Notes: a model not told the origin generated them from the letters alone. Counted from the first letter of the stretch, positions 3,921 to 45,823 are shown. The stretch: DNA of 64,000 nt from Syntrophomonadaceae bacterium (GCA_003556225.1 PWRN01000027.1:10019-74018), one strand, 5' to 3'. Translations and numbers: made by a program.

Positions 3921-4991
3921 TTATAAAGGTTTGTCTTCCGGAAGTTTTTCTCCCAGGGCCAGCCTGCAGAGGTCGCTGATCATGTAGTTGTCTAAACCGG
4001 CCGCGTGGGCTTTTTCATGCAGGCTCTTAAAACACATGGGGCACAGGTAGACCATGGCTTCGGCCTCCTTGTCCCGGGCATCGGCGATGTTCTTATCTTT
4101 AAAGGGCTCGATATTTTTGCCCCGGGGAAAGAGCTTCAGATTGGGGCCGGCGGCCTCCACGCCGCAGCACAGGGCATCAATGCCGTCGTATTTCCGCTTC
4201 ACCCGCTCAACCCCGATCAGGGAGAAGATCTCCTGGAGCGTGTTTTCCACTTCGGCCGGGGTATGACGCGAAGCACAGGGCCTCTGGTAGGCCACTTTCA
4301 TCTTCAAAGGGGTAATACGGTCCTGGTGTTCCTGCAGGTAATCCCGCAGGTATTCAAAAAAGTGCACGACCTTAAAAGGTACGTCGATGCCGGCCCGGGG
4401 CGCGATGTCCTGCAGCAGGGCATAACAGTCCTCGTGCACGAAGATAATCTCCTCTGCCCCAGACTGGGCCAGGTTATCCACGGTCTTTTGCATGCGCTGG
4501 TGCATGATGGACTCGTTTCCCATGTGGGTGAAGAGGACATGGCAAAAATAAGGCAGGCCTTTCAAAATGGTCAGATCTTCAAACAGCTGGCCCTGGGGCG
4601 CCCAGGGCATGTTTCCCGTCATCACGCAGAGAGACATCACCTTTCCCTTGATATCTATCGGACGCGGCTCACTTTTCGCTTCAAAGCGCTCGGACATCTG
4701 CTGGAGTAGCGCACCATCGGCGAAATCTCCATCCTCCTCCAACCGCTTTAGAATCAAGTCGAAGGGACGCGCTTCCTTGCTGCAGTACTCGTTGCAGGCA
4801 AAGCAGGTGATGCAATCATGGAGCCAGTCCACCTCGTCGCCCTGGACGAGTTTTTGAAATTCCTTTCCCGCTTCCTCCGGGGAAAACTCCATGTAGCTGC
4901 ATTTTGCCAAACAATCCCCGCAAAAATCACAACGTGCTGCGTCGAACAAGTGGATCACCGCCGTTTCTAAGAGTGGGTTGTTATGCTTCAA
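3921..4991 (-). CDS. (Fe-S)-binding oxidoreductase with a 4Fe-4S ferredoxin motif and two CCG cysteine-rich domains (HdrD/GlpC/GlcF-like)
   Basis: CDFCGDCLAKC and CITCFACNEYC give two CxxCxxCxxxC motifs. The C-terminal ALCCGVEAAGP and YLCPMCF motifs are CCG-domain signatures. Confidence 0.6.
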   Translation of the reverse strand: MKHNNPLLETAVIHLFDAARCDFCGDCLAKCSYMEFSPEEAGKEFQKLVQGDEVDWLHDCITCFACNEYCSKEARPFDLILKRLEEDGDFADGALLQQMSERFEAKSEPRPIDIKGKVMSLCVMTGNMPWAPQGQLFEDLTILKGLPYFCHVLFTHMGNESIMHQRMQKTVDNLAQSGAEEIIFVHEDCYALLQDIAPRAGIDVPFKVVHFFEYLRDYLQEHQDRITPLKMKVAYQRPCASRHTPAEVENTLQEIFSLIGVERVKRKYDGIDALCCGVEAAGPNLKLFPRGKNIEPFKDKNIADARDKEAEAMVYLCPMCFKSLHEKAHAAGLDNYMISDLCRLALGEKLPEDKPL

Positions 4992-11938: not shown

Positions 11939-12498
11939 TGCTTTCTTATTTCTTCCATAATCTGCGCGGAGATTTCTTCCAGCGAACCTTTTCCGCTTCC
12001 CTGGAAGACGACTGGTGCGCCGATGGCGACCCGGATGCGCTTGAACGGTCCGGGAGGCCACTTGATCGCCACCGGCACCACGGGTTTTTGACTTTTCATG
12101 GCGATGAGGGCGGCGCCCTGCAAGGGCTTGCCCAGCTCCCCGGTTTTTATCCTCGTGCCTTCCGGGAATAAACCGACAACCCCGCCTTCCTCTAAGATCC
12201 GCAGTGCCTGGCGTATGGCCTTGCGGTCGGCCGTACTCCGCCTGACCGGAAAGGCTCCCATTTTCTTGATGATCCATCCCAAAAACCGGATGTGAAACAA
12301 TTCTTCCTTTGCCATGAAATGGACTTTATTTTTCGCTGGAATGATACAGCCTGCCAGGGGAGGATCAAACCAGCTCGTGTGGTTGGCGCAAATGATAAAC
12401 GGCCCCCGGGGAGGGAGATGATTTTTTCCGGAAATGCTGTACCCGAATAAAGTCCTGAAGAGGAGATTAAAAAATGCGTGAAAAAACCGGTAAATCAT
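11917..12498 (-). CDS. plsC: 1-acyl-sn-glycerol-3-phosphate acyltransferase
   Basis: Has the acyltransferase NHTSWFDP (HxxxxD) motif and the FPEGTR motif. Start taken at the Met just after the cmk stop; the ORF track extends to 12522. Confidence 0.8.
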   Translation of the reverse strand: MIYRFFHAFFNLLFRTLFGYSISGKNHLPPRGPFIICANHTSWFDPPLAGCIIPAKNKVHFMAKEELFHIRFLGWIIKKMGAFPVRRSTADRKAIRQALRILEEGGVVGLFPEGTRIKTGELGKPLQGAALIAMKSQKPVVPVAIKWPPGPFKRIRVAIGAPVVFQGSGKGSLEEISAQIMEEIRKQWVSLTP

Positions 12499-25272: not shown

Positions 25273-26418
25273 CTAAACTCGGCCTTTTAAGACTTCATTG
25301 GCCAGCACAAGTCGTTGAATTTCACTGGTGCCCTCGTAAATTTGCATGATCTTGGCATCCCGCATGTATTTCTCCATGGGGTAATCCTTCATGTAGCCGT
25401 AACCGCCCATCACCTGCAGGGCTTCGGTGGTGACTTCCATGGCCATATCCCCGGCAAAAGCCTTGGACATGGCAGAATGGGCCGACAGGCGTTTTTCCTG
25501 TTTATCAACTTTAAAAGCCGCCTGCAGCACCAGCAGCCTGGCTGCTTCAATTTTCATGGCCATATTTGCCAGCTTGAATTGAATGGCCTGGAAAGAGCTG
25601 ATAGGCTTCCCGAACTGCTCTCGCTCCCGGGCATAGCTCACGGCACGCTCATATGCCGCCCGGGCGATACCCACGGCCATGGCCCCGACCATGGGGCGTG
25701 AAATATCCAGGGTGGTCATGGCAATGCGAAAACCGCCGCCTTCCTGGCCTAAAACATTCTCTTCCGGCACGAAGACATCTTCAAAGAGGACTTCCGTGGT
25801 ATTGGAGGCCCGGATACCCATTTTATTCTCTTTTTTCCCGGGCTCCAGGCCGGGAAAATCGCGTTCTAACACGAGCGCCGTGAGCCCCCGCGCGCCGCGG
25901 GAGCGGTCAACGGTGGCAAAAACGGTGTAATAGTCTGCAATGCCCCCGTTGGTGATGAAACACTTCCGTCCGTTGATCATGTACCCCTTGTCCACCTTCT
26001 TGGCCAGGGTAGAAATGGCGGCGGCGTCAGAGCCCGCACCCGGCTCCGTTAGGCAGAACGCGGCAAATTTCCCCTCAGACAGAGGGGTTAAGTATTTTTC
26101 TTTTTGCTCGTGGCTCCCGCCCACCAGGATGGGGTAAGCGGCCAGGGAATTGGCTGCAGCGCTGGTTGTGATCCCGGCGCAGCCCCGGGACAGCTCTTCT
26201 ACCACCAGGCAGGAGGTCACACAGTCCATCCCGCCTCCGCCGTATTCTTCAGGGATCGTCATGGTGCTGTATCCCTGGTAGATCATTTCTTTGAGCAGGT
26301 CGATGGGTGTTTCATTTTCCTCGTCGTACTTGGCCGCAACGGGAATCATGGCTTTTTCCGCATACTCGCGGGCGGCTTTTTTCATGTCTACCTGTTCGGG
26401 CGTAAAGTCAAAGTTCAT
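25273..26418 (-). CDS. acyl-CoA dehydrogenase (short/medium-chain, butyryl-CoA dehydrogenase-like)
   Basis: Full-length ACAD architecture with YGGGG, FCLTEPGAGSDA, GGYGY and a C-terminal EGTSEIQRLV catalytic glutamate region. Start taken at the internal Met MNFDFTPEQ. Confidence 0.8.
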   Translation of the reverse strand: MNFDFTPEQVDMKKAAREYAEKAMIPVAAKYDEENETPIDLLKEMIYQGYSTMTIPEEYGGGGMDCVTSCLVVEELSRGCAGITTSAAANSLAAYPILVGGSHEQKEKYLTPLSEGKFAAFCLTEPGAGSDAAAISTLAKKVDKGYMINGRKCFITNGGIADYYTVFATVDRSRGARGLTALVLERDFPGLEPGKKENKMGIRASNTTEVLFEDVFVPEENVLGQEGGGFRIAMTTLDISRPMVGAMAVGIARAAYERAVSYAREREQFGKPISSFQAIQFKLANMAMKIEAARLLVLQAAFKVDKQEKRLSAHSAMSKAFAGDMAMEVTTEALQVMGGYGYMKDYPMEKYMRDAKIMQIYEGTSEIQRLVLANEVLKGRV

Positions 26419-26606
26419 TGTTGTTGCTTGCCTTAACCGGATCGTTAAAGCAAGTGACACCTCCTTTTCTTGCTGCTTCTTTTTTACTATTCTTCATTAT
26501 CCTATCGGCTCCCGCCGGCTTATTATCCCGTTGAAGTGGCCAGGATGCAGTTTCGGTGTTCACCCTGCTTCAGGGCAATTTTCTCGTCTAAAACTGCCAG
26601 ATAAGA

Positions 26607-32071: not shown

Positions 32072-32707
32072 TTAACCGCGCCTTTGCTGCTGCGTGTTGG
32101 TTCCCCAAAAGGTAATTTTATCCATAGCTGTTAAAACCCGCGCCGCCGCAAAAACCACTTCCGTGGAATGATTGATCGCCAGGTACTTTCCCACGGCCTT
32201 TCCGCCTACGGTTATCGCGGCAATCATCCCCGCGAGAAAGATATTCAAGTACAGTTCGTTTATCCCCGGTCGGAGAAAGGCGAGGTTGATAATGATAAAG
32301 GCCCCGATGGTACCACTGATCACACCGCTGATATCCCCGATCACATCGTTACAAAAATTAGCCACTTTTTCAGCGTTTTTTACCAAATAGATTCCTTTTT
32401 TGGCGCCGTATATTTTTTTCGACGCCTTGGAGTGAAAGGGCATTTCATCCGCTGCCGCCACAGCCGTTCCAATGGTATCAAACAGGATTCCGATAAAAAT
32501 AATCATAAAAAGGATCAGGAAAGAAACAATGGTGGAATTGATCCCCTGCACGAGCAACCGGGTGATCAGAGCTAAACCAGAAGCCAAAAAAAAAGTCCAG
32601 ATACTGGCCTTAAGGATCCAGCGAACCGTTCTCTGCTTTCTCTGGGTTTGCTTGCTGTTGGCCAATACCCCCAACACCTCATAAGTAATAAAGGACTTAG
32701 GTGGCAA
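32072..32707 (-). CDS. oapA: DUF21 (CNNM-type) transmembrane-domain protein; candidate OLE-associated protein A
   Basis: About 200 aa with four predicted TM helices and no CBS/CorC domains, lying between the OLE-like noncoding interval and dxs. This matches the described oapA context. Confidence 0.55.
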   Translation of the reverse strand: MPPKSFITYEVLGVLANSKQTQRKQRTVRWILKASIWTFFLASGLALITRLLVQGINSTIVSFLILFMIIFIGILFDTIGTAVAAADEMPFHSKASKKIYGAKKGIYLVKNAEKVANFCNDVIGDISGVISGTIGAFIIINLAFLRPGINELYLNIFLAGMIAAITVGGKAVGKYLAINHSTEVVFAAARVLTAMDKITFWGTNTQQQRRG

Positions 32708-33346
32708 TCATGTGAGTAAACTTTACGGCTTCAGGTCCAGCAGGTTTTCCCAGATGCCTACCTCGCTGTTGCCAGCGGGCAGTTTCCTTTTAAAGACATC
32801 TCTGCCGTGTTGCCAGCGGCAGGGCTGGATTGCCACTAAGACCGCACTTTAATCCCCACATGATCTCCCACAGGTGGGAACAGTCTAGGAGTTTTCCTCG
32901 ATAGTGCATTTACGCTTCCTAGCCTCTTTTGCAGTCCTGGTTTCCTAAGGCAGGTTGCTGCCTTTCTCCCCGCAGGACCACTCAAGGCAGGCTACACTGT
33001 GCCCAGCGTCTGCCGCACACAGGTTCTAGCCTAAGCCGTAGCGCTTTCCCAGTAAGGCAATTAACCACGAACTTAGGTCTCCACGAAGGTAGGGTCAACG
33101 CCTACATGCCTTTGTAGATCGCCCCATCCTTCTTAACTCCCAGCACCAACCCCCGACTGGGCTTCGGCAGCCGGCACCAGGAACTTCATTGATGTGCCCT
33201 TTGGCGGATTTTTAGGCCCGCCTTCAGAAGCGTTTGCCTAACTAGAATACTGCACCACCTATGTCCCAAGTTAATTATAGCACACTGCCTTATTAATCTC
33301 AAGATTTTGCCAAATGCTTGCCCGTGATCATCGATCTGGCAATCCC
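32708..33346 (-). ncRNA. ole: candidate OLE (ornate large extremophilic) RNA; exact ends unknown
   Basis: 639-nt interval with no ORF of 60 aa or more in the gene direction, rich in local hairpins (e.g. AGGCAG-GTTG-CTGCCT, CTGCCG-N9-CGGCAG). It is flanked by ispA upstream and a DUF21 membrane-protein gene plus dxs downstream, within the nusB-folD-xseAB-ispA-[ole]-oapA-dxs-tlyA-nadK-recN arrangement that defines the OLE locus. RNase P, tmRNA and SRP core motifs were searched by eye and not found. Confidence 0.6.
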
Positions 33347-34593: not shown

Positions 34594-35811
34594 TTACTCG
34601 CCTGTTTTTTCAATTTCTTTGACCAGGCAGCGGGCCCGCCCATCGACAAAAATGACTTCTATTTCACGATTTTCTCTCAGAAGGCTGATGCCCTTGATCA
34701 GCTGCTGGTTTTCATCCACAACCAGGGCAAATCCCCGTCCCAAAACCCGCATCGGATCTAACGCCTGCAGGCGATCTTCCAGGTTTTTTACCGTGGCGCG
34801 CTTCAGCTGTAAATCGTATTTGATACCACGTGACATCCTCAACCATAGCTCATCAATCCTCTGCAGGTGGTAATAGATCTTATCTCGCAAATACCGGTGG
34901 AACCTGGCACTGGAAAGGTGCTTCAGCAGATGCAAGCGGCCTGCCAGGCTGTTTTTAACAGCGCGTTCCAAACGAACCTTCATGACCTGGACCTGTTTTT
35001 CCAGCTCATTCCTATCGGGAGCAATAAGCTCCGCCGCGGCAGTAGGCGTTGAAGCCCTGCAGTCGGCGACAAAATCTGCGATGGTAAAATCCGTTTCGTG
35101 ACCCACTGCTGAAATCACGGGAGTTCTTGCTTGAAAGATGGCCCGGGCAACGCCTTCATCATTAAAAGACCACAGCTCTTCCAGGGAACCACCCCCGCGG
35201 GTTATGACCAGCACATCAAATTCTCCCCGCCGGTCCATCACTTCCAGGGCCTGGACGATTTGTGCGGCAGAATCCTTTCCCTGGACAGCGACAGGATAGA
35301 TGGTCAACTGTATAAAAGGAAATCTCCGTCGCAGTGTTGTAATGAAATCTCGAACCGCTGCGCTGCCGGGCGAGGTGATTACGCCAACGTTCCCTGGAAT
35401 AGAGGGCAAGGGCTTTTTGTGCGCCGCATCAAAAAGCCCTTGTTCTTGCAATTTTTCTTTGAGCTGTTCAAAAGCCTGGTAGAGCGCCCCCTGTCCTTCG
35501 GGTTCCAGTTCCTCGATATAAAGTTGAAAATACCCGCCGCGTTCATAAATCGAGGTGCTGCCCCTGGCAATCACGCTCATGCCCTCGGCCGGTAAAAAGG
35601 TCAGATGTCTGTTCTTTTGTCTAAAAAAAACGGCCCGTAAGATCTGCTCCTCTTCTTTTAATGTAAAATACATATGCCCCGAGGGCTTGTGGTGTTTGAA
35701 ATTCGATATTTCACCCAGGACCTGGATGTCCTGTAAAAGGGCGTCTTGAAATAATATCTCTTTGAGGTAGCGGTTAACCTGGGATACACGGTAAATGGCA
35801 TCCTTTTTCAT
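34594..35811 (-). CDS. xseA: exodeoxyribonuclease VII large subunit
   Basis: N-terminal OB-fold (VSQVNRYLKEIL...GEISNFKHHKPSGHMYFTLKEE) and catalytic domain. 405 aa. Confidence 0.9.
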   Translation of the reverse strand: MKKDAIYRVSQVNRYLKEILFQDALLQDIQVLGEISNFKHHKPSGHMYFTLKEEEQILRAVFFRQKNRHLTFLPAEGMSVIARGSTSIYERGGYFQLYIEELEPEGQGALYQAFEQLKEKLQEQGLFDAAHKKPLPSIPGNVGVITSPGSAAVRDFITTLRRRFPFIQLTIYPVAVQGKDSAAQIVQALEVMDRRGEFDVLVITRGGGSLEELWSFNDEGVARAIFQARTPVISAVGHETDFTIADFVADCRASTPTAAAELIAPDRNELEKQVQVMKVRLERAVKNSLAGRLHLLKHLSSARFHRYLRDKIYYHLQRIDELWLRMSRGIKYDLQLKRATVKNLEDRLQALDPMRVLGRGFALVVDENQQLIKGISLLRENREIEVIFVDGRARCLVKEIEKTGE

Positions 35812-36650
35812 AACAGTTTACAAGCCTCGACCAAATTGTCTAAAAGCATTGCAATCGTTACGGGGCCAACGCCGCCCGTGATCGGGGTAATCCAACTGGC
35901 CTTTTCCTGCGCTTCACCGTGGTCCACGTCGCCCACCAGGCGAGTGCCAACCTGGCTCAGGCCGACGTCCACCACGATCGCGCCTTCTTTAACCATATCC
36001 CCTGTAATGGTATAGGGATGCCCCACAGCCACCACCAGGATGTCCGCTTGCTTGGTGAAGGCGGAAAGGTCCGGGGTCTGAGAATGGATGATGCTCACAG
36101 TTGCATTTCTTTCCAGCAGCATGAAGGCTACCGGTTTTCCTACAAGCTGGCTGCGCCCGACGACAACGGCCCTTTTGCCTTCAATCTTTTCACCGGTTGA
36201 GTCAATCAGCTTGATAATACCCTTGGCCACGAAAGGCGGCATATGGTGTTCCCCGATCAAGAAGTCTCCCATATTTATAAAATGCAGTCCTTCGACATCT
36301 TTGCGCGGTTCCACGATCTGTGAGATCAGGGTATGGTCCAGGTGAGGCGGTAGAGGATGGATGTTGATCCCGTGGACAAGATCGGTTTCATTGAGCCGTT
36401 CGATCAGGTGGACGATTTCTTCGTCTGTTGTGGTTTCGGGTAGGTTAAAAACCCGGCACTTGATCCCGAGTTGCCGGCACGTTCTTTCTTTCAATTGCGC
36501 AATATGCACCCGGCCGACGGGACTTTTCACGACAAGAATCGCCAAACCCGGTGTAATGCCTTTATCTGCATGCAAGGACTGGATATCTTGTTTGATTTTT
36601 TCCTTGACCTCGATTGCAGCCTGTTCTCCATTAATGATTTTTGCGGTCAT
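35808..36650 (-). CDS. FolD-family methylenetetrahydrofolate dehydrogenase/cyclohydrolase paralogue 1, divergent at conserved active-site motifs
   Basis: FolD fold with GRSQLVGKPVAFML, ADILVVAVG, GAIVVDVG and PITGGVGPVTIAML. Canonical motifs are altered: SxxYVxxK becomes VGRVHIAQLK, VQLPLP becomes NIHPLPP, DVDG becomes DVEG, and PCTP becomes PPFVAK. Confidence 0.7.
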   Translation of the reverse strand: MTAKIINGEQAAIEVKEKIKQDIQSLHADKGITPGLAILVVKSPVGRVHIAQLKERTCRQLGIKCRVFNLPETTTDEEIVHLIERLNETDLVHGINIHPLPPHLDHTLISQIVEPRKDVEGLHFINMGDFLIGEHHMPPFVAKGIIKLIDSTGEKIEGKRAVVVGRSQLVGKPVAFMLLERNATVSIIHSQTPDLSAFTKQADILVVAVGHPYTITGDMVKEGAIVVDVGLSQVGTRLVGDVDHGEAQEKASWITPITGGVGPVTIAMLLDNLVEACKLL

Positions 36651-36766
36651 TTTCGACCCCCTAGCGGCATTTCCAGCTTTGAGGCCAGCTGTGCAATCCC
36701 CTGGCCCCAAAGCTCACCACTTCACGGTTGAAATGCCTTATCTTCAAAGAACTCAACTTTTTTCGT

Positions 36767-37621
36767 TCAGCTTTCAAGATGTTTTTTAAACGCTTGCAGC
36801 GCATTCCACATCAACATGGTAATGGTGATGGGTCCTACGCCTCCAGGAACCGGCGATATCCAGCTCGCGACCTCCTTGGCCTGGTCAAAATCCACGTCAC
36901 CTACGAGCCTGTCCCCTACCTGGGTTACGCCTACATCGATCACGATGGCACCAGGTTTGATCCAGTCACCCTTGACCAACCCTGTCTGGCCCGCAGCAGC
37001 GACCAGGATATCCGCTTCGCGACAAATGTCCGCCAAGCCCACTGTTTTTGAATGACAGAGGGTTACGGAGGCATTTCTTCGCAGCAGAATCAGGGCCAGG
37101 GGCTTGCCCACGATGTTGCTGCGGCCAATCAAAACGGCGGACTTTCCATAGACCGGTTGCGTCGTATGTTCGATCATATGCAAAATACTGTGTGCCGTGC
37201 AGGCAATGAAGCCTTCTTCGTCGCTGAACAGCTTGCCCATATTAATGGGGTGCGTGCCGTCAATGTCTTTTTCAGGATCTATCGCGTTTAAGATGACGCG
37301 TTCGTCAAGGTGGTCCGGCAGGGGCAGCTGGACCATGAACCCATGGATTTTTTCGTCCTCGTTGAGTTCTTCTATCACCTCGAACAAATCATCCTGGGAG
37401 ATATCCTCAGGCAACCGCCGGACCTCTGAATAGAACCCCAGCTTTTTACTCTGCTTTTCTTTGTTGGTAACATATGACAGGGAAGCAGGATTTTGCCCGA
37501 CCAAGACAACGGCAAGACCGGGAGTCAGGCCCGTTTCATCATAGATGCGGCCCAACTCTTTCACAATTTCTGTGCGGACGCTTTCTGCCACTTCATCCCC
37601 TTTAATCAGGTTGGCGGGCAT
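36767..37621 (-). CDS. folD: bifunctional methylenetetrahydrofolate dehydrogenase/cyclohydrolase, paralogue 2
   Basis: Canonical PASLSYVTNKEK, MVQLPLP, DIDG, GRSNIVGKPLALIL and PVPGGVGPITITML motifs. The PCTP motif is replaced by ACTAHS. Confidence 0.8.
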   Translation of the reverse strand: MPANLIKGDEVAESVRTEIVKELGRIYDETGLTPGLAVVLVGQNPASLSYVTNKEKQSKKLGFYSEVRRLPEDISQDDLFEVIEELNEDEKIHGFMVQLPLPDHLDERVILNAIDPEKDIDGTHPINMGKLFSDEEGFIACTAHSILHMIEHTTQPVYGKSAVLIGRSNIVGKPLALILLRRNASVTLCHSKTVGLADICREADILVAAAGQTGLVKGDWIKPGAIVIDVGVTQVGDRLVGDVDFDQAKEVASWISPVPGGVGPITITMLMWNALQAFKKHLES

Positions 37622-37633
37622 CCAGCATACCTC

Positions 37634-38518
37634 CTAACTCTGGTTTAACCAGATCGCTGCCTCAACGGTATTATAAAGCAGCATGGTGACGGTCATCGGG
37701 CCTACTCCCCCCGGTACCGGGGTAATATAAGAAGCTTTTTCCGCAACGGGTTCATAATCAACGTCTCCAGCCAGGCGGAAACCGCTCTTTTTCGATGAAT
37801 CTGGAACACGATTAACACCGACGTCAATCACCACGGTGCCTTCGTTTACCATATCTGCCGTGATCGCATTTGGACGCCCCATGGCAGCCACCAAAATATC
37901 CGCTTGCTTGGTATAATAGCTGATGTCCTTGGCCCCGGTATGAACCACGGTAACGACGGCATTGGCCCCTTCTGCTTTTTGCATTAAAATCGCGGCTAAA
38001 GGTTTTCCAACAATATTGCTGCGTCCACAAACAACGACGTGTTTCCCGGCGGGATCATTCCCGGAGCGGACCAGGAGCTGCTTTACGCCGTGGGGCGTGC
38101 AGGGTAGGGGACAGGGCTCTCCCCGCAGCAATTTGCCCAGGTTAACGGGATGAAAACCGTCTACATCTTTTTCCGGTGAAATATAACCGATGACGCGGTC
38201 AACGCTGATGTGGTCCGGTAGGGGAAGCTGGACAAGAATACCACTGATTTTCGGGTCCTTGTTCAGTCCATCAACGGTCTTCAATACCTCTTCTTCTGTC
38301 GCATCTGCCGGCAGTCGAATGGTCTCTTCATACAAGCCGATCTCTTCGCATCCCTTTGCTTTGCTGGTGACATACGAAACCGAAGCGGGATCTTCACCCA
38401 CAAGCACGACACCCAGTCCGGGAACAATACCCTTCTCCTTCAATTCAGCGACTTTTTGCTTTAACTCTCCCCTGATTTCTTCTGCGACCTGTTTTCCGGA
38501 AATAACTTTTGCTGCCAT
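37634..38518 (-). CDS. folD: bifunctional methylenetetrahydrofolate dehydrogenase/cyclohydrolase, canonical copy
   Basis: All FolD hallmarks are present: PASVSYVTSKAK, LVQLPLP, DVDGFHPVNLG, PCTPHG, GRSNIVGKPLAAIL, PVPGGVGPMTVTML. Confidence 0.85.
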   Translation of the reverse strand: MAAKVISGKQVAEEIRGELKQKVAELKEKGIVPGLGVVLVGEDPASVSYVTSKAKGCEEIGLYEETIRLPADATEEEVLKTVDGLNKDPKISGILVQLPLPDHISVDRVIGYISPEKDVDGFHPVNLGKLLRGEPCPLPCTPHGVKQLLVRSGNDPAGKHVVVCGRSNIVGKPLAAILMQKAEGANAVVTVVHTGAKDISYYTKQADILVAAMGRPNAITADMVNEGTVVIDVGVNRVPDSSKKSGFRLAGDVDYEPVAEKASYITPVPGGVGPMTVTMLLYNTVEAAIWLNQS

Positions 38519-38547: not shown

Positions 38548-41500
38548 TTATGCTTGAAGACCTTTTTCCTCAAAATACTGCACGAACCATTTTTCTACGC
38601 TATCCACCCATTTCTCCGCCTGGAATGCAGCCACGTGATTAAGGGGTAAGCTGAAGGCAATCTTGCCTTTCGCCTGCGCAAAATCCTGGACGGTACAAAT
38701 GGGTCGCCCCCCCGGCCAGAAATAGCCTTCATCCGCGGCATCCAGGGTTGTGCCTTTAAAGATGGGCGCCAGGGTGCGGATTTCTTCCCAAACATCTTCC
38801 AGGGATTTGATTTTTTGTTGATAGCCCATGTATTCCATCAGCTTGATGAGTATTTCCCAGTTTTCTCGGCCCGTCAGCGGCTTTATGGCCGGATTGATTT
38901 TTTGGATCAAGCGCTCGCTGTTGGTGTAACTTCCCGTGGTTTCTGCAAAAGAAGCGGCCGGAAGAACGACATCGGCTTTTTTTGCAATCTCCGTCAAAAA
39001 AAGATCCTGCACGACCAGCAGTTCAGCCTGGGCCAGTTTGTCGATCCAGGCGCTCTTAATATCTTCGCCGAAAACGAAAACACCTTTAATGGTCTTCTTT
39101 TCCAGCCCTTCCAGGACCTGCTGCGTGTTTTTCCCTGCTGCCGGGGGAACCTCTGTCTTCCACTTATCGGAGAACTTGCTGCGGATCTCGGGATCGTCCG
39201 CCTGCTGGTAACCGGTTAAATAACGGGTCGAAACACCCATATCCAGCATACCCTGGCTGTTGCACCGCTCCCGCAGGAAGATAATGCCGCGGCGAGGTTT
39301 ACCAACTTTTCCAAGCAGGGTCACAAAGCCGGCCAACAGCTGCGCCGCTTCCGGGGCCAGGTTATTGCTCCCCATGACCAGCATGGGAGTCTTCGCGGCG
39401 GCATAGCGCTCCACCAGGTCGGCAATATCTTGTTCTGTTATCCCGCTGCCGGAGAGCAGCTCATCCATGGATTGCTTACTCAGCCAGGCCTCCAGGGTGG
39501 CAAAATTCTCTGTGTACTCTTGCACGAAGGCCTGGTCTACCAACCCTTTTTCTTTTAAATAAAGGAGCAGGGCGGCAAACAGGGAAACCGAAGCCTGGTC
39601 CTCGGCCTTTAAAAATCGGGCGGCGTACTTCTTCAACTTCACGTCTCGATTGTCGACCACCCATAATGTTGCCCCTTTCTCCACCGCTTGCTTGATTTTC
39701 AAGGCGGCGATGGGATAGTCAGGAAAATCCGCGCCCACGGTCAGGATAAAGTCCGCCGTGCCAATTTCTTCGTACGAGTTGGTCGATGCGTCCCAACCGA
39801 ACATTTCTGCCAGGGGATTTACAGGTTCCGCTGTGCTGTTAATGTTGTTTGTTCCCAGGGTTGCCCGGGCAAACTTCTGGATGAGATAGCTTTCTTCATT
39901 ACTGTGCCTGGGGCTGGAAAAAACAGCCAGGCTTTCTCCTCCAAAACGGGCCTTCAGGGATTTAAACTTCTTGGTAATATGCACCAGCGCATCTTCCCAG
40001 GAGGTTTCCCTTAGTTGTCCGTTTTCACGGATCAGGGGCTTGCGAATCCGCTCCGGGCTGTTGACGTATTCGAAACCAAACCGACCTCGTTTACAGAGTA
40101 ACCCCTGGTTGACCGGGCCTTCCCCGGGCACAACCCGGGCCAGCGTATCCCCGATCGTTTCAATGTTAATGCTGCATCCCACCCCGCAATATCCACAGGT
40201 GGAAGCCGTATGCTTCAGTTCCCAGGGGGCCGGCTTGGTGAAAGGCATCCGCTCAACCAGGGCTCCCGTGGGACAAACCGCCACGCACTGCCCGCACGTG
40301 ACACAACTGGTTTCTTCCAGGGGGAGGTCCAGCGAGGGGCTAACATAGGCATCAAATCCCCGGTTCACCAGCCCCAATGCTTCGGCACCGATCACCTCTG
40401 CACAGGTTCGCACACAAAGGCCGCAGAGGATGCATTTATTGGGTTCACGGAAAATGAAGGGATGTTCTTCATTTTCGTAATCGTGTTTTTCACCCATGAT
40501 TCTCTCGGGATGGGCATCGTATTCCGTCGCATAAGATCTCAGCCTGCATTCAAAAACATCCAGGCAGCCACACTCCAGGCAGCGCTCCCCGTCCTTGGAA
40601 GCGCTCTCCGGCGTTAATCCTTTCTCCACTTCCCGGAAATTTTTCACGCGGACTTCCGCGGGGACCAGGGGCATCTTGACTTTTTCCACGGTCTCCAGGT
40701 CAGCAAAATCTTCCTCGGTAAGCCCTTCCTTGATAATATTATAGTGCGTCTTGTAGGGCATGACCTCTCCGTTTAAGTAATGATTGACAACCTCTGCCGC
40801 TCGTTTTCCGGCGGCAATGGCATCAATAGCAATGGCCGGGCCGGTCACAGCATCACCGCCAGCGAAAACCCCGGGCACGTTGGTCAAGAACGTATCTTCC
40901 TGAATATCGATGGTATTCCATTTATTGGTTCCCACATCATCTTTGATCTTGTCAATCACAACGTCCTGGCCGATGGCAGCGATAATCGTGTCCACTTCCA
41001 CGGTAAAAAAGGAATCGGGAATGGGAACGGGGCGGCGCCTTCCGGATTCGTCGGGTTCCCCGAGTTCCATTCTCTGGCAGACCACCCGCTGCGCCTGGCC
41101 CTCGCCCTCAATCTGCACGGGGTTGGCCAGCAGGTGCAGTTCAACGCCTTCTTCATCGGCTTCGATGACTTCAATTTCCTGTGCAGGCATTTGTTCCCGG
41201 GCCCTGCGGTAGATCACCATCACCTGGTCAGCGCCGAGACGCTTGGCAGTGCGGGCGGCGTCCATGGCCGTGTTCCCGCCGCCAATAACTGCAACCTTGC
41301 TCCCCAGGGTCACTTCTTCATTTAACATCACGGCCCTTAAGAACTCGGTGCCGCCCTGCACGCCCGGCATATCCTCGCCCGGCACACCCATCCTGCGGCT
41401 GTTTTGAGCTCCAATGGCCAGGTAGACTGCGTCGTAACCGTTCTTGAAAAGGTAGTCGATGGTGAAATCTTCTCCCAGCTGCAGCCCTGTCTTGGCCTCC

Positions 41501-42273
41501 ACGCCCAGGTCCAGCACCAGCTGGATTTCCGCGCCCAAGACAGCCTTGGGGAGCCTGTACTCTGGAATACCATAGCGCAGCATCCCTCCCAGCTCGGGCA
41601 GGGCTTCAAAAATGGTCACCTGGTGCCCGCTGCGCCTCAAGAAATACGCCGCAGTAATGCCGGCAGGCCCTGACCCGACCACGGCGACTTTCTTGCCCGT
41701 TTCAGGAGCCACGGCAGGCAGGTAGGGTTCTTCACTGGCCAGGTCCAGGTCCCCGATCAACCGCTTCATGTAGCGAATGGCCACGGGTCCTTCCTTCAAG
41801 TTGCGCCGGCAGTCTTCCTCGCAGGGAGCAGGGCAAACCCGACCGATAGAAGCCGGAATGGGCATGAACTCCTTGACCAGGATCAAGGCATCCCGGTACT
41901 GCTTGTTGGCGACCAGGGCGGCATATCCCTGGGCATCACAGTTGGCGGGACAGGCCATGACACATGGAGCCCGACAGTCCCCGCTGTGATCAGAGAGAAT
42001 AAGTTCCAAGGCCAGCTTGCGGGCCTTGCGAATTTTTTCATTTTCCGTTTGAACCACCATGCCATCTGTTACTTTTGTTGCACAGGCTCTCAGCAACCTG
42101 GGCATCCCTTCGATCTCTACCAGGCACAGGCCGCAAGAAGCATAGACATCCGTATTGCCACTGAAACATAGCGTCGGAATATGAATACCGTGTTCCGTCG
42201 CGATATCCAATACGGTTTGGTCCGAAAGGCCGGCAAGTTCACGGCCATTGATATTTAGTCTGACTTGACTCAT
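38548..42273 (-). CDS. 1241-aa multidomain Fe-S flavoprotein: 2Fe-2S ferredoxin N-terminus, GltD/NfnB/SfrB-like NAD(P)H-FAD oxidoreductase, two [4Fe-4S] ferredoxin motifs, and a formate-dehydrogenase/NuoG-like molybdopterin-fold domain lacking the catalytic Cys/Sec
   Basis: NuoG/HndD-type N-terminus (NINGRE...HIPTLCF...CGLC). Dinucleotide folds VAVVGSGPAGITAAYFL and VAVIGGGNTAMDAA. CLECGC/CILCGLCVRTC/CVTCGQCVAVCPTG clusters. Fdh-type CGYCGVGCS...LCKRGRF motif. Where FdhF carries CARVCHGPS (Sec/Cys-His), this protein has STAEPVNPLAEM, and the C-terminal MopB_CT portion is short. Confidence 0.7.
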   Translation of the reverse strand: MSQVRLNINGRELAGLSDQTVLDIATEHGIHIPTLCFSGNTDVYASCGLCLVEIEGMPRLLRACATKVTDGMVVQTENEKIRKARKLALELILSDHSGDCRAPCVMACPANCDAQGYAALVANKQYRDALILVKEFMPIPASIGRVCPAPCEEDCRRNLKEGPVAIRYMKRLIGDLDLASEEPYLPAVAPETGKKVAVVGSGPAGITAAYFLRRSGHQVTIFEALPELGGMLRYGIPEYRLPKAVLGAEIQLVLDLGVEAKTGLQLGEDFTIDYLFKNGYDAVYLAIGAQNSRRMGVPGEDMPGVQGGTEFLRAVMLNEEVTLGSKVAVIGGGNTAMDAARTAKRLGADQVMVIYRRAREQMPAQEIEVIEADEEGVELHLLANPVQIEGEGQAQRVVCQRMELGEPDESGRRRPVPIPDSFFTVEVDTIIAAIGQDVVIDKIKDDVGTNKWNTIDIQEDTFLTNVPGVFAGGDAVTGPAIAIDAIAAGKRAAEVVNHYLNGEVMPYKTHYNIIKEGLTEEDFADLETVEKVKMPLVPAEVRVKNFREVEKGLTPESASKDGERCLECGCLDVFECRLRSYATEYDAHPERIMGEKHDYENEEHPFIFREPNKCILCGLCVRTCAEVIGAEALGLVNRGFDAYVSPSLDLPLEETSCVTCGQCVAVCPTGALVERMPFTKPAPWELKHTASTCGYCGVGCSINIETIGDTLARVVPGEGPVNQGLLCKRGRFGFEYVNSPERIRKPLIRENGQLRETSWEDALVHITKKFKSLKARFGGESLAVFSSPRHSNEESYLIQKFARATLGTNNINSTAEPVNPLAEMFGWDASTNSYEEIGTADFILTVGADFPDYPIAALKIKQAVEKGATLWVVDNRDVKLKKYAARFLKAEDQASVSLFAALLLYLKEKGLVDQAFVQEYTENFATLEAWLSKQSMDELLSGSGITEQDIADLVERYAAAKTPMLVMGSNNLAPEAAQLLAGFVTLLGKVGKPRRGIIFLRERCNSQGMLDMGVSTRYLTGYQQADDPEIRSKFSDKWKTEVPPAAGKNTQQVLEGLEKKTIKGVFVFGEDIKSAWIDKLAQAELLVVQDLFLTEIAKKADVVLPAASFAETTGSYTNSERLIQKINPAIKPLTGRENWEILIKLMEYMGYQQKIKSLEDVWEEIRTLAPIFKGTTLDAADEGYFWPGGRPICTVQDFAQAKGKIAFSLPLNHVAAFQAEKWVDSVEKWFVQYFEEKGLQA

Positions 42274-42331
42274 GCGCTTAACTCCACCCCTTTACTGTTA
42301 AATATGAACATGGTTTTGAGCACTTTTTTTA

Positions 42332-44110
42332 TTATTCCACGATTACCGAGTCAAAATTACAGGCATCGAAGCAGTTCCCGCACTTTATGCACTTTTCCTG
42401 TTCGATCACGTGCACTTCCTTCTTCTCACCCGTAATCGCTTCCGTGGGACAGCGCTTCACACAGCGCGTACAGCCGGTGCAGAGTTCCGGGTCAATGGTA
42501 TAGGTGAGCAGTTCGCGGCAAACCTTGGCCGGACACCGTTTATCCATGATATGGGCTTCGTATTCATCCCGGAAATAAAGCAGCGTCGATAAGACAGGAT
42601 TTGGTCCGGTTTGACCCAATCCACAAAGGGCCCCTTCCTTGACGTTCAAGGCAATTTCTTCCAGCAGCTCCAGTTCTTCGGGCTGAGATTTGCCCTCGGT
42701 GATCCTGTTTAAGATTTCCAGCATCCGTTTCGTTCCCAGGCGGCAGTGGACACATTTTCCGCAGGATTCGTTCTGGACAAAATTCAAGAAGAAACGGGCC
42801 ATATCCACCATGCAGGTCGTTTCGTCCATCACGATCATCCCACCGGAACCCATGATCGCTCCCGTTTTCACCAGGGATTCGTAGTCAACGGAAGTATCCA
42901 GCAAACTCTCTGGAACACACCCACCCGAGGGGCCACCCAGCTGGACGCCTTTGAATTTCTTATCGTCCCTGATGCCTCCGCCTACTCCAAAGATGACGTC
43001 CCGCAAGGAGATACCCATGGGAACTTCGATCAAGCCCCCCCGCTTCATCTTACCGGCCAGGGCAAACACCTTTGTTCCCTTGCTTTTTTCCGTTCCAAAG
43101 GCAGCGAATTTTTCTGCGCCGTTGTAGATGATCCAGGGCACGTTGGCAAAGGTTTCCACGTTGTTGATGCAAGTGGGTTTCTGCCATAATCCCTTCTCCG
43201 CCGGGAAGGGGGGTTTTAAGCGCGGCATCCCGCGCTCTCCTTCCAGGGAGGCGATCAGTGCGGTTTCTTCACCGCATACAAAGGCTCCCGCCCCTTTCTT
43301 GATCTTCATGTGAAACGAAAAGTCTGTCCCGAGAATGTTGTCTCCCAGCAAGCCGGCTTCCTTTGCGTCTTTCATCGCGATTTCCAGGCGGGTAATGGCC
43401 AGGGGATATTCGGCCCGAACATAAACATGACCTTCATTTGAACCGACAGCATAGGCAGCCAGTAGCATTCCTTCCACGATGGCGTGCGGATCACCCTCAA
43501 TGATACTACGGTCCATGAAGGCCCCGGGGTCTCCTTCATCGGCGTTGCAGACAATGTACTTTTTATCTCCCGGGTTTTGCCGGGTAAAGCGCCATTTTAA
43601 ACCAGTGGGAAAACCGGCTCCGCCCCGCCCCCGCAGGCCGGATTTTAGAACTTCTTCGATCACATCTTCGGGGGTCATTTCTTTCAATGCTTTTTCCAGG
43701 GCCTTGTACCCGTCGCGTTCCCTGTATTCTTCCAGGGATTCCGGGTTGATGATGCCGCAATTGCGCAGGGAAATGCGGTTTTGGGTCCCCACAACCCCCT
43801 CCCTTTCCTCGTTCATGAGCAGGTCAGCCACGGGTTGACCCTGAACCAGGTGCTCATTCACGATGCGGGCGGCATTTTCTTCTGTGACGTCACCGTAAGA
43901 AAAAAGCTTGCCATCGGGCGTGATCACATCCACGATGGGTTCGCGGTAGCACATCCCGACACAGCCGGTTTTTTCCAGGGATACATCGATGTCAGCTTTT
44001 TCCAGCTCTTTTTCCAGCACATCGTACGTCTTGTACCCACCGGCGGCAATCCCGCAGGTACTGAGTCCTACTTTGACTAAAGTTTTATCGTGATCGTGCA
44101 ATACAGACAC
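42332..44110 (-). CDS. NuoF/HndC/HydB-like NADH-binding FMN flavoprotein subunit with an N-terminal thioredoxin-like [2Fe-2S] region and C-terminal 2x[4Fe-4S]
   Basis: GRGGAGFPTGLKW (FMN/NADH site), the cluster-N3 motif ESCGKCVHCRLG, and C-terminal CTGCTRCVKRCP...CIKCGNCFDAC ferredoxin motifs. 592 aa. Confidence 0.8.
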   Translation of the reverse strand: MSVLHDHDKTLVKVGLSTCGIAAGGYKTYDVLEKELEKADIDVSLEKTGCVGMCYREPIVDVITPDGKLFSYGDVTEENAARIVNEHLVQGQPVADLLMNEEREGVVGTQNRISLRNCGIINPESLEEYRERDGYKALEKALKEMTPEDVIEEVLKSGLRGRGGAGFPTGLKWRFTRQNPGDKKYIVCNADEGDPGAFMDRSIIEGDPHAIVEGMLLAAYAVGSNEGHVYVRAEYPLAITRLEIAMKDAKEAGLLGDNILGTDFSFHMKIKKGAGAFVCGEETALIASLEGERGMPRLKPPFPAEKGLWQKPTCINNVETFANVPWIIYNGAEKFAAFGTEKSKGTKVFALAGKMKRGGLIEVPMGISLRDVIFGVGGGIRDDKKFKGVQLGGPSGGCVPESLLDTSVDYESLVKTGAIMGSGGMIVMDETTCMVDMARFFLNFVQNESCGKCVHCRLGTKRMLEILNRITEGKSQPEELELLEEIALNVKEGALCGLGQTGPNPVLSTLLYFRDEYEAHIMDKRCPAKVCRELLTYTIDPELCTGCTRCVKRCPTEAITGEKKEVHVIEQEKCIKCGNCFDACNFDSVIVE

Positions 44111-44133
44111 CTCCCAGGTCCCTTTGCTTTGGA

Positions 44134-44652
44134 TTATTCATTTTCATTTTGCTCATCTGTTTTTCCTCGAAAATCCTTCAATATCTTACGGGTCGACTTT
44201 GGTGTTAACATCGCATAGGTTTCACCATCAATTAACATCACCGGGGAAAGACTGCAGCAGCCAATACAGGCGACTTCTTCATAAGTAAACAATCCATCAC
44301 CGGTTGTTTCCCCGCCTTTAATACCCAGCTCATCCGTGATCGTATTACCCACCAGCTTTGCGCCGTTAACATGGCAGGCCGTGCCAACGCATAGCATGAT
44401 GGTGTGCTTCCCCTTGGGCTGCAGGCGAAACTGGGCATAAAAAGTGGCGATGCCGTAAATTTTTGCGGGTGACACCCCCAGCTGATCACCGAGATACCCG
44501 ATGCCTTCTTTAGGAACGTAATCAAGTGCTTCCTGGATGTCCTGGAGGATCGGAATGATCGCACTGGGATCGCCCTTGTACGTATCCAGGACGCGGTCAA
44601 TCGTTTCATAAGGTATGGCTTCGGACTCCAGGGATTTCTCTGTTGCGGCCAT
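44134..44652 (-). CDS. NuoE/HndA/HydC-like thioredoxin-fold [2Fe-2S] subunit
   Basis: CVGTACHVNGA...CIGCCSLSPVM cysteine pattern of NuoE-type 2Fe-2S proteins. About 170 aa. Confidence 0.8.
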   Translation of the reverse strand: MAATEKSLESEAIPYETIDRVLDTYKGDPSAIIPILQDIQEALDYVPKEGIGYLGDQLGVSPAKIYGIATFYAQFRLQPKGKHTIMLCVGTACHVNGAKLVGNTITDELGIKGGETTGDGLFTYEEVACIGCCSLSPVMLIDGETYAMLTPKSTRKILKDFRGKTDEQNENE

Positions 44653-44869: not shown

Positions 44870-45823
44870 TTATGCTGTGCTCAGCAGTTGTACTGCCAGC
44901 AGCGCCGGACCGACAGCGCTGTCCCCGGCAAAACGCGGTGAAGGAAAATAGAACGAGAGCGAGGGAAGGCCTTCCATCAATCTCCTGCGAATAAAGGCGT
45001 TGGAGGCAACTCCCCCCACCACCAGGACCTCCTGGAGCGCTTTGTCATCGGCGGCCCTCCGCAGCACTTCGATCAAGCTGTGGGCGATGGCAACTTCGAC
45101 TCCCCGGGCAGCCTCAGCAGCCGGAGCGCCGCCTTCCAGAGCCCTTTCCACAAAGGTAGCGGGCCCTGAAAAGCTAATGTCATATCCTTTGACAGAAACG
45201 GGGACTTTTAAACCACCCTGGGTATTCCCGGCCGCCAGCTTCTCCAGCTCTCTACCCGCTGGAAAAGAAAGACCGAGCTTCACGCCCACTCGATCAATAA
45301 ACTGCCCCGCATTCAAATCATTGGTGCCGCCCAGCAGATGAATATCCATGCCGCGCCGCGGGTTCCTCACAGCTTCGACCAGTTCCGTCGTCCCGCCGGA
45401 AAGGTGCAGGGATAAAAAATGGTTCGAAGGGCATTTGGAGTTCCAGAAACCTGTCTCAATATGTCCTTCCTGGTGACTGAAGCCATAAAACGGAACTTGC
45501 AAAAAAGAGGCCAGACAGCGACCGTAACTTTCACCCACCTGGAAAACCGGCATGTAAGAACCTTCCAGGGGGCGAGGCTTCACAGAGGCGGCAATGCAGC
45601 GGATGGAAACACCCTGGAGCTTCGAAAAAATGTCTTCCCAGATTTCAGGCATGTTTTTGATATGCTGAAACACCGCCTCGGATTGCCGTAAGCCCTTTCC
45701 CCCCTTGATCACCTCTAGCGTGATCCTCTTTTCCTGGACCAGCACCGCTTCCTGGTCGGGTTCTTTCTGCAGCACGGCCAGGGATGTAACATAATTCGAG
45801 GTATCAATGCCAAGGATGTACAT
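44870..45823 (-). CDS. Kae1/TsaD (glycoprotease, peptidase M22) family protein, divergent paralogue
   Basis: LGIDTS N-terminus, HQEGH metal motif, and VVGGVASNAFIRRRL matching the GGVAANxxLR motif of TsaD. Short at 317 aa. Confidence 0.5.
   Translation of the reverse strand: MYILGIDTSNYVTSLAVLQKEPDQEAVLVQEKRITLEVIKGGKGLRQSEAVFQHIKNMPEIWEDIFSKLQGVSIRCIAASVKPRPLEGSYMPVFQVGESYGRCLASFLQVPFYGFSHQEGHIETGFWNSKCPSNHFLSLHLSGGTTELVEAVRNPRRGMDIHLLGGTNDLNAGQFIDRVGVKLGLSFPAGRELEKLAAGNTQGGLKVPVSVKGYDISFSGPATFVERALEGGAPAAEAARGVEVAIAHSLIEVLRRAADDKALQEVLVVGGVASNAFIRRRLMEGLPSLSFYFPSPRFAGDSAVGPALLAVQLLSTA

Follow-up and report, generated by a model that had tools for sequence, protein, structure and literature searches.

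FolD, the bifunctional methylene-tetrahydrofolate (methylene-THF) dehydrogenase/cyclohydrolase, is generally regarded as one invariant enzyme of housekeeping metabolism. Its key residues, in human numbering, are Tyr52, Lys56, Gln100, Leu101, Asp125, Gly273, and Gly276 (PMC3368264); Lys56 together with Gln100 sets the stage for catalysis, and the substrate is bound by Tyr52 and Asp125 (PMC3368264, PMC6443876). In Escherichia coli FolD, the substitution Q98H leaves ~8% of dehydrogenase and ~1% of cyclohydrolase activity, with Tyr50 swinging away, and K54N leaves 19% of dehydrogenase and zero cyclohydrolase activity (PMC5688156). In Moorella thermoacetica, the transhydrogenase subunits NfnA and NfnB are encoded by Moth_1518 and Moth_1517 (PMC4320612). 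We analyzed a stretch of 64,000 nt from a Syntrophomonadaceae bacterium (GCA_003556225.1, PWRN01000027.1:10019-74018; the whole stretch is called the window below), in which three FolD genes, here named c3, c2, and c1 in their order on the minus strand, are adjacent and co-oriented. One of them, c1, is part of a narrow and conserved subfamily of FolDs in which the active site is remodeled, and it lies inside a conserved cassette of three FolD genes and a transhydrogenase. In the literature, which was covered incompletely, we found no report of multiple folD copies, of a triple array, or of the c1 subfamily, and a paper on 'Ca. Syntrophonatronum' does not mention folD.

Results

Three FolD paralogs with graded active sites

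The three genes are complete open reading frames (ORFs) arranged head to tail, apparently as part of one operon, with Stn-type transhydrogenase genes on one side and xseA on the other:

37634..38518, minus strand: c3, canonical FolD of the bifunctional methylene-THF dehydrogenase/cyclohydrolase type, 294 amino acids (aa) (Pfam and motifs)
36767..37621, minus strand: c2, FolD paralog of 284 aa with Tyr, Lys, Gln, and Asp intact (Pfam, motifs, and clade)
35808..36650, minus strand: c1, paralog of 280 aa with the FolD fold and a remodeled pocket (Pfam, motifs, subfamily, and AlphaFold2 model)

Each product matches both FolD domains (PF00763 and PF02882) at E-values between 1e-24 and 1e-65, far beyond chance, and the three are 41–45% identical in pairwise comparison. 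A preliminary description made from the sequence alone had placed three FolD ORFs at these coordinates and proposed a gradient of active-site divergence, in which c3 is canonical, c2 has lost PCTP (here ACTAHS), and c1 carries Gln-to-His, DVEG, and PPFVAK. The minus-strand ORFs, both Pfam domains, and all of these motif states were found as described. The NADP-binding motifs (GRSxxVGxP, His-Ser/Thr, and GGVGP) are present in all three copies, so that the altered NAD/NADP preference suggested at the same time finds no support: the NADP-type GRS...HS/T pattern is kept throughout.

The pocket of c1 is remodeled and the fold retained

In c1, the hallmark motifs read SPVGRVHIAQLK, INIH-PLPP (Gln to His together with a one-residue deletion), KDVEG, and PPFVAKG. 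The pocket residues are accordingly Arg47, His49, Ile50, Lys54, His98 (followed by the deletion), Glu120, and Phe140-Val141-Ala142. The Lys of the YxxxK motif is kept and invariant, and the Tyr is gone; c2 and c3 have both. Which residue takes the Tyr position varies with the register of the alignment. In HMMER and some MAFFT alignments, compensating gaps place His49 there, and the ungapped register places Ile50 there (Val in most c1-type proteins), with Arg47 at human Ser49. In the AlphaFold models of c1 and c3, the helix C terminus and the following strand are in register, and the c1 helix is unbroken from residue 48; these secondary-structure boundaries favor the ungapped register. The Tyr is lost in either register. 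Of the Tyr-to-His change reported earlier, the loss of Tyr therefore stands, and the replacement by His, being register dependent, is not favored.

The AlphaFold2 model of c1 is confident (predicted local distance difference test score, pLDDT, 93.4; predicted template-modeling score, pTM, 0.91), and its best Foldseek matches are FolD structures (template-modeling score, TM, 0.84–0.94). The N-terminal Pfam domain match of c1 reaches only 84 bits, and its scores against the NCBIfam FolD models are 274 against a cut-off of 333 and 276 against 437, with a shortfall of 60–290 bits over the cut-offs. None of c1, c2, and c3 reaches the NCBIfam FolD equivalog cut-offs. Judged by its residues, c1 should not be filed as a bifunctional FolD: the fold is that of FolD, yet c1 departs from the enzyme in four residue tests that define it.

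c1 defines a narrow subfamily with fixed pocket residues

The c1 subfamily comprises 52 clusters at 90% identity (P0001–P0052) with common motifs down to 53–57% identity; beyond these, the next matches are canonical FolDs at ≤51% identity. Its signature consists of SP.AR.HVARLKERTC, HGINIH-PLPPH, KD[VI]EGLH, P[FY]VAKGI, GRSQLVGKP, and GGVGPVTI. Lys54, His98, Glu120, Arg166, and the GG.GP loop are invariant. His98, the Leu deletion, and Glu120 occur in all 52 c1-type sequences and in none of the 258 canonical FolDs compared with them. In that comparison, 21 positions are conserved in each group but different between them, and nearly all lie in or next to the pocket. In human numbering, the changed positions include Tyr52 (lost), Leu98 to Asn, Val99 to Ile, Gln100 to His, Leu101 (deleted), Asp125 to Glu, Thr148 to Val, Pro149 to Ala, Ile176 to Leu, and Met278 to Val. 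Because the changes are fixed, alternative, and centered on the pocket, they point to functional divergence rather than decay. The core of this pattern is shared by the basal members: the Tyr is lost, Gln has become His with the deletion, Asp has become Glu, and Cys has become Phe. The basal members (P0052 and L098_b) still have PFTP and lack His49, which suggests that c1 changed gradually from a FolD-like state.

A profile search of 1.84 billion representatives at 50% identity returned one c1-type sequence (511 bits), the next match being a canonical FolD at 349 bits. The c1-type alignment searched against genome contigs found canonical FolDs with at best 47% identity and no c1-type locus among the matches listed. 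All members come from metagenomes or metagenome-assembled genomes (MAGs), and the sole protein name among them is an automatic 'bifunctional FolD'. A total of 20 contigs encode the identical c1 protein; the six listed are one from soda-lake sediment (JGI SL_9KL_010_SED), two from ENA assemblies, and three from NCBI MAGs.

Other departures from canonical FolD are present in the same sequence library. About 30 of the 150 best 50%-identity representatives (P0416–P0538) are FolD-like and lack Lys54, Gln98, and/or Asp121 (E. coli numbering). Examples are Lys to Gln with Asp to Glu and GHSEIVGK/CHIAT, Gln to Asn with Asp to Glu, and Gln to Glu or His; further library lineages of this kind have Lys to Gln, Ile, or Leu. 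By their residues, several unannotated, noncanonical FolD lineages thus exist beyond the c1 type, and these losses of Lys, Gln, or Asp suggest that loss of bifunctionality recurs in the family.

The cassette is old and under purifying selection

The gene order c3-c2-c1-xseA is found again in uncultured Bacillota of soda lakes and digesters that are distantly related. We found the array in nine independent contexts. Around distant relatives of c1 (53–69% identical), the cassette lies between nusB and xseA. All three FolD types are present in six lineages; c2 is missing from L087, and L092/L093 are without c3 at the locus. A transhydrogenase always precedes the cassette, namely StnABC in the window, L096, and L092/L093, and NfnAB in L087–L091, L094, L095, and L097. 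The basal lineage L098 has nusB, a TsaD-like gene, an ordinary FolD, a basal c1-like gene, and xseA, without a transhydrogenase. The cassette is old and conserved in a clade of uncultured, mostly sporulating Bacillota.

In a neighbor-joining tree of 88 sequences with 100 bootstraps, the c1, c2, and c3 types are each monophyletic with support of 99–100 (100 for the c2 type), and pairings between types received 0/100. The tree and the identities of 41–45% rule out a recent duplication. The preliminary description had explained the array by tandem duplication with sub- or neofunctionalization. Functional divergence is borne out by the fixed pocket residues of c1, and the ratio of nonsynonymous to synonymous substitution rates (dN/dS) is 0.07 for both c1 and c2. 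A lineage-specific tandem duplication is contradicted by the low identities, by the separate clades, and by the spread of the array across distant lineages, in which housekeeping proteins share only 50–70% identity. On sequence grounds, the tandem duplication is ancient at best, and part of the array may have been acquired.

Identities were compared among four lineages, and dN/dS was measured against the close relative L100:

c1: identity 55–69%, dN/dS 0.071
c2: identity 46–68%, dN/dS 0.069
c3: identity 88–91%, dN/dS 0.025
xseA: identity 55–64%, dN/dS 0.138
ispA: identity 52–65%, dN/dS 0.129

Overall, ten neighboring genes have identities of 47–70%. The synonymous divergence (dS) from L100 is 0.36–0.51; between the deeper lineages, synonymous sites are saturated in every gene (proportion of synonymous differences, pS, ~0.8). 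Both c1 and c2 are thus under purifying selection, with dN/dS of 0.07 compared with 0.13–0.14 for xseA and ispA.

c3 is the constrained copy and c2 the loosening one

In c3, all hallmark motifs are in place (PASxxYVxxK, VQLPLP, KDVDG, and PCTP), and its AlphaFold2 model has a pLDDT of 95. Its NCBIfam score, 332.4 against the cut-off of 333 (NF010783), is 0.6 bit short; apart from this cut-off, c3 is a FolD member in every sequence feature examined. Its identity among the four lineages contrasts with 50–70% for neighboring genes. Because synonymous sites are saturated in all genes, this conservation reflects constraint and not a recent transfer; horizontal transfer was considered as its source and rejected, the synonymous sites of c3 being as saturated as those of its neighbors. 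The c3-type group is slowly evolving and contains at least 120 clusters that are ≥75% identical. Outside the clade, a c3-type gene adjoins fhs and thyX in another organism. In L004 (GCA_003567715.1, PWYV01000007.1, 8133–9017), the c3 call consists of two ORFs, 145 and 116 aa long, with c2 and c1 intact; the split is probably a frameshift or an assembly error of that record.

In c2, PASLSYVTNK and VQLPLP are kept, KDVDGFH has become KDIDGTH, and PCTPxG has become ACTAHS, with loss of both Pro residues of PCTP and of the Gly that follows. Its NCBIfam FolD scores lie below the cut-offs (326.4 against 333 and 337 against 355). The signature of the c2-type subfamily is PASLSYV.N, P[C/S]TA[H/Y]S, and GGVGPITI, and many of its proteins have Ile, Leu, Cys, or Ala at the position of the catalytic Lys. 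In four of the lineages with Nfn, the c2 orthologs have lost GGVGP, GRS, His-Ser, and the Asp of KDVDG. They are still full-length at 284–289 aa (L090, 9012–9866; L094, 7014–7883; L095, 7040–7906; L097, 5985–6842). Their sequences suggest a pseudoenzyme with the FolD fold that is in the making or has already been repurposed. The c2 protein of the window, whose Tyr, Lys, Gln, and Asp are intact in a sub-lineage with strong selection, may still be catalytic; the c2-type family as a whole, to judge from its residues, is not dependent on FolD chemistry.

Organization of the operon and the c2-c1 spacer

The cassette is flanked and interrupted by the following features:

36651..36766, minus strand: spacer between c2 and c1, 116 nt, with a GC-rich hairpin (RNA folding)
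38548..44652, minus strand: stnA-, stnB-, and stnC-like genes directly upstream of c3 (domain and Protein Data Bank (PDB) matches)
34594..35811, minus strand: xseA, translationally coupled to c1 (TIGR00237, 464 bits)

On the minus strand, the order begins with nusB, a TsaD-like paralog, a NuoE-like gene, a NuoF-like gene, and a gene for a 1241-aa fusion of GltD with NuoG/Fdh-like domains, continues with c3, c2, c1, xseA, xseB, ispA, and an OLE RNA, and ends with an OapA-like gene, dxs, tlyA, nadK, and recN. The Shine–Dalgarno sequences are AAGGAGG for c3, TAGGAGG for c2, and TAGGGGG for c1, and the intergenic gaps are 29 nt between stnC and c3, 12 nt between c3 and c2, and 116 nt between c2 and c1. 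The c1 stop and the xseA start share a 4-nt ATGA overlap, which is present in every related locus, and xseA is without a ribosome-binding site (RBS) of its own. A scan for promoters and terminators returned no more sites than in shuffled sequence.

The spacer RNA folds at −47.9 kcal/mol (z = −4.05 relative to shuffles) into a hairpin with the arms GAGCUUUGGGGCCAG...CUGGCCUCAAAGCU, and no U-run follows. Spacers of 60–141 nt separate the c2 and c1 positions in all related loci, and the hairpin sequence is kept in the closest relative L100 only. An Rfam scan of the spacer found no riboswitch and no known RNA. Given the missing Rfam match and the restriction of the hairpin to L100, we do not propose a regulatory RNA; the hairpin may be a processing or stability element that separates stn-c3-c2 from c1-xseA.

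Transhydrogenase genes and other features of the window

The genes upstream of c3 have the domains expected of the Stn type: a NuoE-like protein, a NuoF-like protein, and a fusion of ~1200 aa with GltD- and NuoG-like parts and no formate-dehydrogenase active site. The 1241-aa protein matches PDB 8oh5_C with 1046 bits, and the 592-aa protein matches 8oh5_B with 924 bits; we take 8oh5 to be the published structure of the Stn complex. The domain architecture of the fusion is that described for StnC (PMC7483475). Stn-type genes fill the slot between nusB and the first FolD gene in some lineages, and NfnAB genes fill it in others. These NADPH transhydrogenases are unrelated to each other, and by its gene content this exchange looks like non-orthologous replacement in situ.

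Between nusB and stnA lies a TsaD/Kae1-family paralog of 317 aa (44870–45823, minus strand), which is also found in L098 (1889–2830). It scores 147 bits against a cut-off of 207.8 (TIGR00329) and 130 against 296 for the TsaD equivalog, is present in the lineage of the window and in L098, and is absent from the lineages with Nfn.

Downstream of the cassette, a full-length Ornate Large Extremophilic (OLE) RNA occupies 32685–33274 on the minus strand (Rfam RF01071, 486 bits, model positions 1–616). It sits between ispA and a membrane-type ORF of ~190–200 aa (32072–32707, minus strand), which has no or weak Pfam matches and lies upstream of dxs. We take this ORF to be OapA-like and the slot between ispA, the OapA-like gene, and dxs to be the known genomic position of OLE RNA. 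A gap at the position of the OLE RNA recurs in all related loci.

Four further genes lie at a distance. A 919-aa fusion of IspH (LytB) to four S1 RNA-binding domains (9518–12277, minus strand) is presumably the known clostridial-type ispH-rpsA fusion. At the window edge, a 984-aa BcrAD/BadFG-type ATPase with a DUF2229 'CoA enzyme activase' domain (70–3024, plus strand) stands beside a protein with a CCG (HdrD-like, cysteine-rich) domain (3921–4991, minus strand). An acyl-CoA dehydrogenase is encoded at 25273–26460. The remaining genes are ordinary Firmicutes housekeeping genes.

Discussion

We read the activities of c1, c2, and c3 from gene anatomy, conservation, selection, synteny, and fold. 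On sequence and synteny, c3 would be a high-flux, canonical, NADP-dependent bifunctional methylene-THF dehydrogenase/cyclohydrolase, presumably cotranscribed with an NADPH/NADH/ferredoxin transhydrogenase that would balance its cofactor. c2 would be a copy under looser catalytic constraint, selected here and decaying to a noncatalytic protein or lost in sister lineages. c1 would be a functional, NADP(H)-binding protein of the FolD fold with a rebuilt folate pocket, and probably a specialized NADP(H)-linked oxidoreductase whose substrate would be a folate or pterin. It keeps the NADP site, the fold, and a carboxylate where the pterin is anchored, as would be expected of an NADP(H)-linked enzyme on a folate-like substrate. 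In the simplest version, c1 would be a kinetically altered, essentially monofunctional 5,10-methylene-THF dehydrogenase. Since the E. coli Q98H and K54N enzymes nearly or fully lose cyclohydrolase, c1 is, by analogy, most likely without normal cyclohydrolase activity. That it is a modified methylene-THF dehydrogenase with cyclohydrolase lost is the reading we tentatively favor, at somewhat less than an even chance.

Several observations weigh against this reading. Lys54, which would be superfluous for a pure dehydrogenase and is lost in the c2 type and in other noncanonical lineages, is invariant in c1. The Thr of PCTP is Val in c1, although 258/258 canonical FolDs have it, as do 27 of the 30 other noncanonical representatives listed. 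The aromatic residue that stacks on the p-aminobenzoate ring is gone. E. coli Lys9 and Arg234, putative substrate-binding residues (PMC6443876), correspond to Glu and Gln in c1. Moreover, it is not evident why a second NADP-type dehydrogenase would be needed beside c3. These points fit a changed substrate or reaction, or a ligand-binding nonenzyme, about as well. A clean split of dehydrogenase and cyclohydrolase roles among the copies, as the preliminary description had envisaged, fits poorly, because c1 keeps the cyclohydrolase Lys and loses Gln100 and the PCTP Thr.

It is possible, if doubtful, that c1 is neofunctionalized, working with NADP(H) and a Lys/His/Glu(/Arg) pocket on another substrate or at another oxidation state. 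Candidate reactions are a flavin-free reduction of 5,10-methylene-THF that yields 5-methyl-THF, the reduction of either a 7,8-dihydropterin or dihydrofolate, and a reaction on a nonfolate substrate. The remodeling is centered on the substrate pocket and leaves the NADP site untouched; the new invariant residues His98 and Glu120 stand beside the retained Lys54; and the Tyr, the near-universal Thr148, and the backbone position of Leu101 are lost, unlike in other noncanonical FolDs. Basic residues proposed for substrate binding are replaced, and the linkage to NADPH-handling Stn or Nfn is conserved. With a longer Glu and one residue fewer, the pterin could take a different position with respect to the nicotinamide. 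On the other side, the basal members that keep PFTP and lack His49 indicate gradual change, and Glu can replace Asp as pterin anchor, which is equally compatible with an unchanged substrate. That the c1 type is an unrecognized FolD-derived family with another NADP(H)-linked reaction, acting on reduced folates or pterins, is unlikely. Its most interesting version would be a flavin-free, direct-hydride 5,10-methylene-THF reductase/methyl-THF dehydrogenase, acting on the same carbon as the hydride transfer of FolD; another would be a substitute for dihydrofolate or dihydropterin reductase. In both, the c1 gene would be co-encoded with FolD and with an Nfn or Stn transhydrogenase that handles NADPH.

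We consider it rather improbable that c1 (and c2) are noncatalytic, FolD-fold binders of NADP(H) and/or a folate, serving as modulators of c3, for example in heterodimers, or as sensors. FolD is a dimer, the three genes are always adjacent and co-oriented, and four of seven key catalytic or binding residues are altered in c1. Orthologs of c2 without catalytic and NADP motifs persist at full length in several lineages, and a precedent is MTHFD1L, which has synthetase activity only and keeps an inactive FolD-like domain. However, the pocket residues of c1 are invariant and not free to vary, its NADP motifs are intact, and its dN/dS is as low as that of a working enzyme. In addition, at the locus of L092/L093 c1 stands without c3, and in L098, where there is no transhydrogenase, the basal c1-like gene is accompanied by an ordinary FolD.

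Resistance to an inhibitor offers a far less probable explanation, in which c1 (or c2) would be a back-up FolD insensitive to a natural product of the carolacton type. Carolacton-resistant E. coli carry Q98H, K54N, a deletion of K54-R55, or G8S in FolD, and Y50 and K54 are key contacts of the compound (PMC5688156); c1 carries a change equivalent to Q98H and is without Y50. Yet neither a biosynthetic cluster nor an inhibitor is known from these anaerobic habitats, the c1 type is old and universally retained in the clade, and its extra pocket changes far exceed what resistance needs. Decaying pseudogenes or MAG assembly artifacts, to which the split c3 of L004 and the degenerate c2 of some lineages might point, have a negligible chance of explaining c1 and c2 and are refuted for the window copies by the selection and conservation data, given intact ORFs with RBSs, the identical c1 on 20 contigs, dN/dS of 0.07, conserved motifs in 52 c1-type clusters, and a confidently predicted fold.

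Annotation pipelines call all three genes 'bifunctional FolD'. Here, a clade of uncultured, Wood–Ljungdahl-type anaerobes has a fixed three-FolD cassette wired to an NADPH transhydrogenase, and the methyl-THF/methylene-THF step and its redox coupling are in question in syntrophic acetate oxidizers. If the activity of c1 is new, pathway reconstructions for these organisms would change; if c1 is monofunctional or regulatory, it would be a clean natural experiment on which FolD residues carry which half-reaction, and a warning against reading one-carbon flux from folD gene counts.

Comparison with known systems

Canonical FolDs and the DC301 domain of human MTHFD1 (1B0A, 1A4I, 3P2O, and 3L07) have the two-domain fold and the NADP motifs in common with c1, c2, and c3, and their structures are 33–42% identical to c1 at the TM scores given above. 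In contrast to them, c1 is without Tyr52, Gln100, Leu101, Asp125, and the Cys-Thr-Pro of PCTP. The E. coli Q98H enzyme (PDB 5O2A) has the same Gln-to-His change as c1; it is a single laboratory substitution in an otherwise canonical enzyme, whereas c1 adds ~20 other fixed changes, has a residue deleted beside the His, and is without the Tyr.

Yeast MTD1 (PDB 1EDZ), a monofunctional, NAD-dependent methylene-THF dehydrogenase, also has the FolD fold and has given up the cyclohydrolase residues: at Lys56 it has Thr, at Gln100 Tyr, and at Asp125 Glu. The match of 1EDZ to c1 is weak (E = 2e-9, residues 40–189). Compared with MTD1-like and other noncanonical lineages, c1 keeps the Lys and loses the Tyr and the PCTP Thr that those lineages keep. 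It may act like a dehydrogenase, but its residues place it outside the MTD1-like pattern, with Gln lost, Lys kept, and the aromatic residue and Thr lost. The combination of a kept Lys with lost Tyr, Thr, and Leu is, on the sequences compared, its own.

The association of FolD with a transhydrogenase has a precedent. In M. thermoacetica, as here, a transhydrogenase stands beside an NADP-dependent FolD, the gene adjoining nfnAB being presumably Moth_1516. The subunit architecture of the Sporomusa ovata Stn complex matches that of the window genes (PMC7483475). Moorella and Sporomusa are described with a single FolD at this place, and the window adds two divergent FolDs before xseA.

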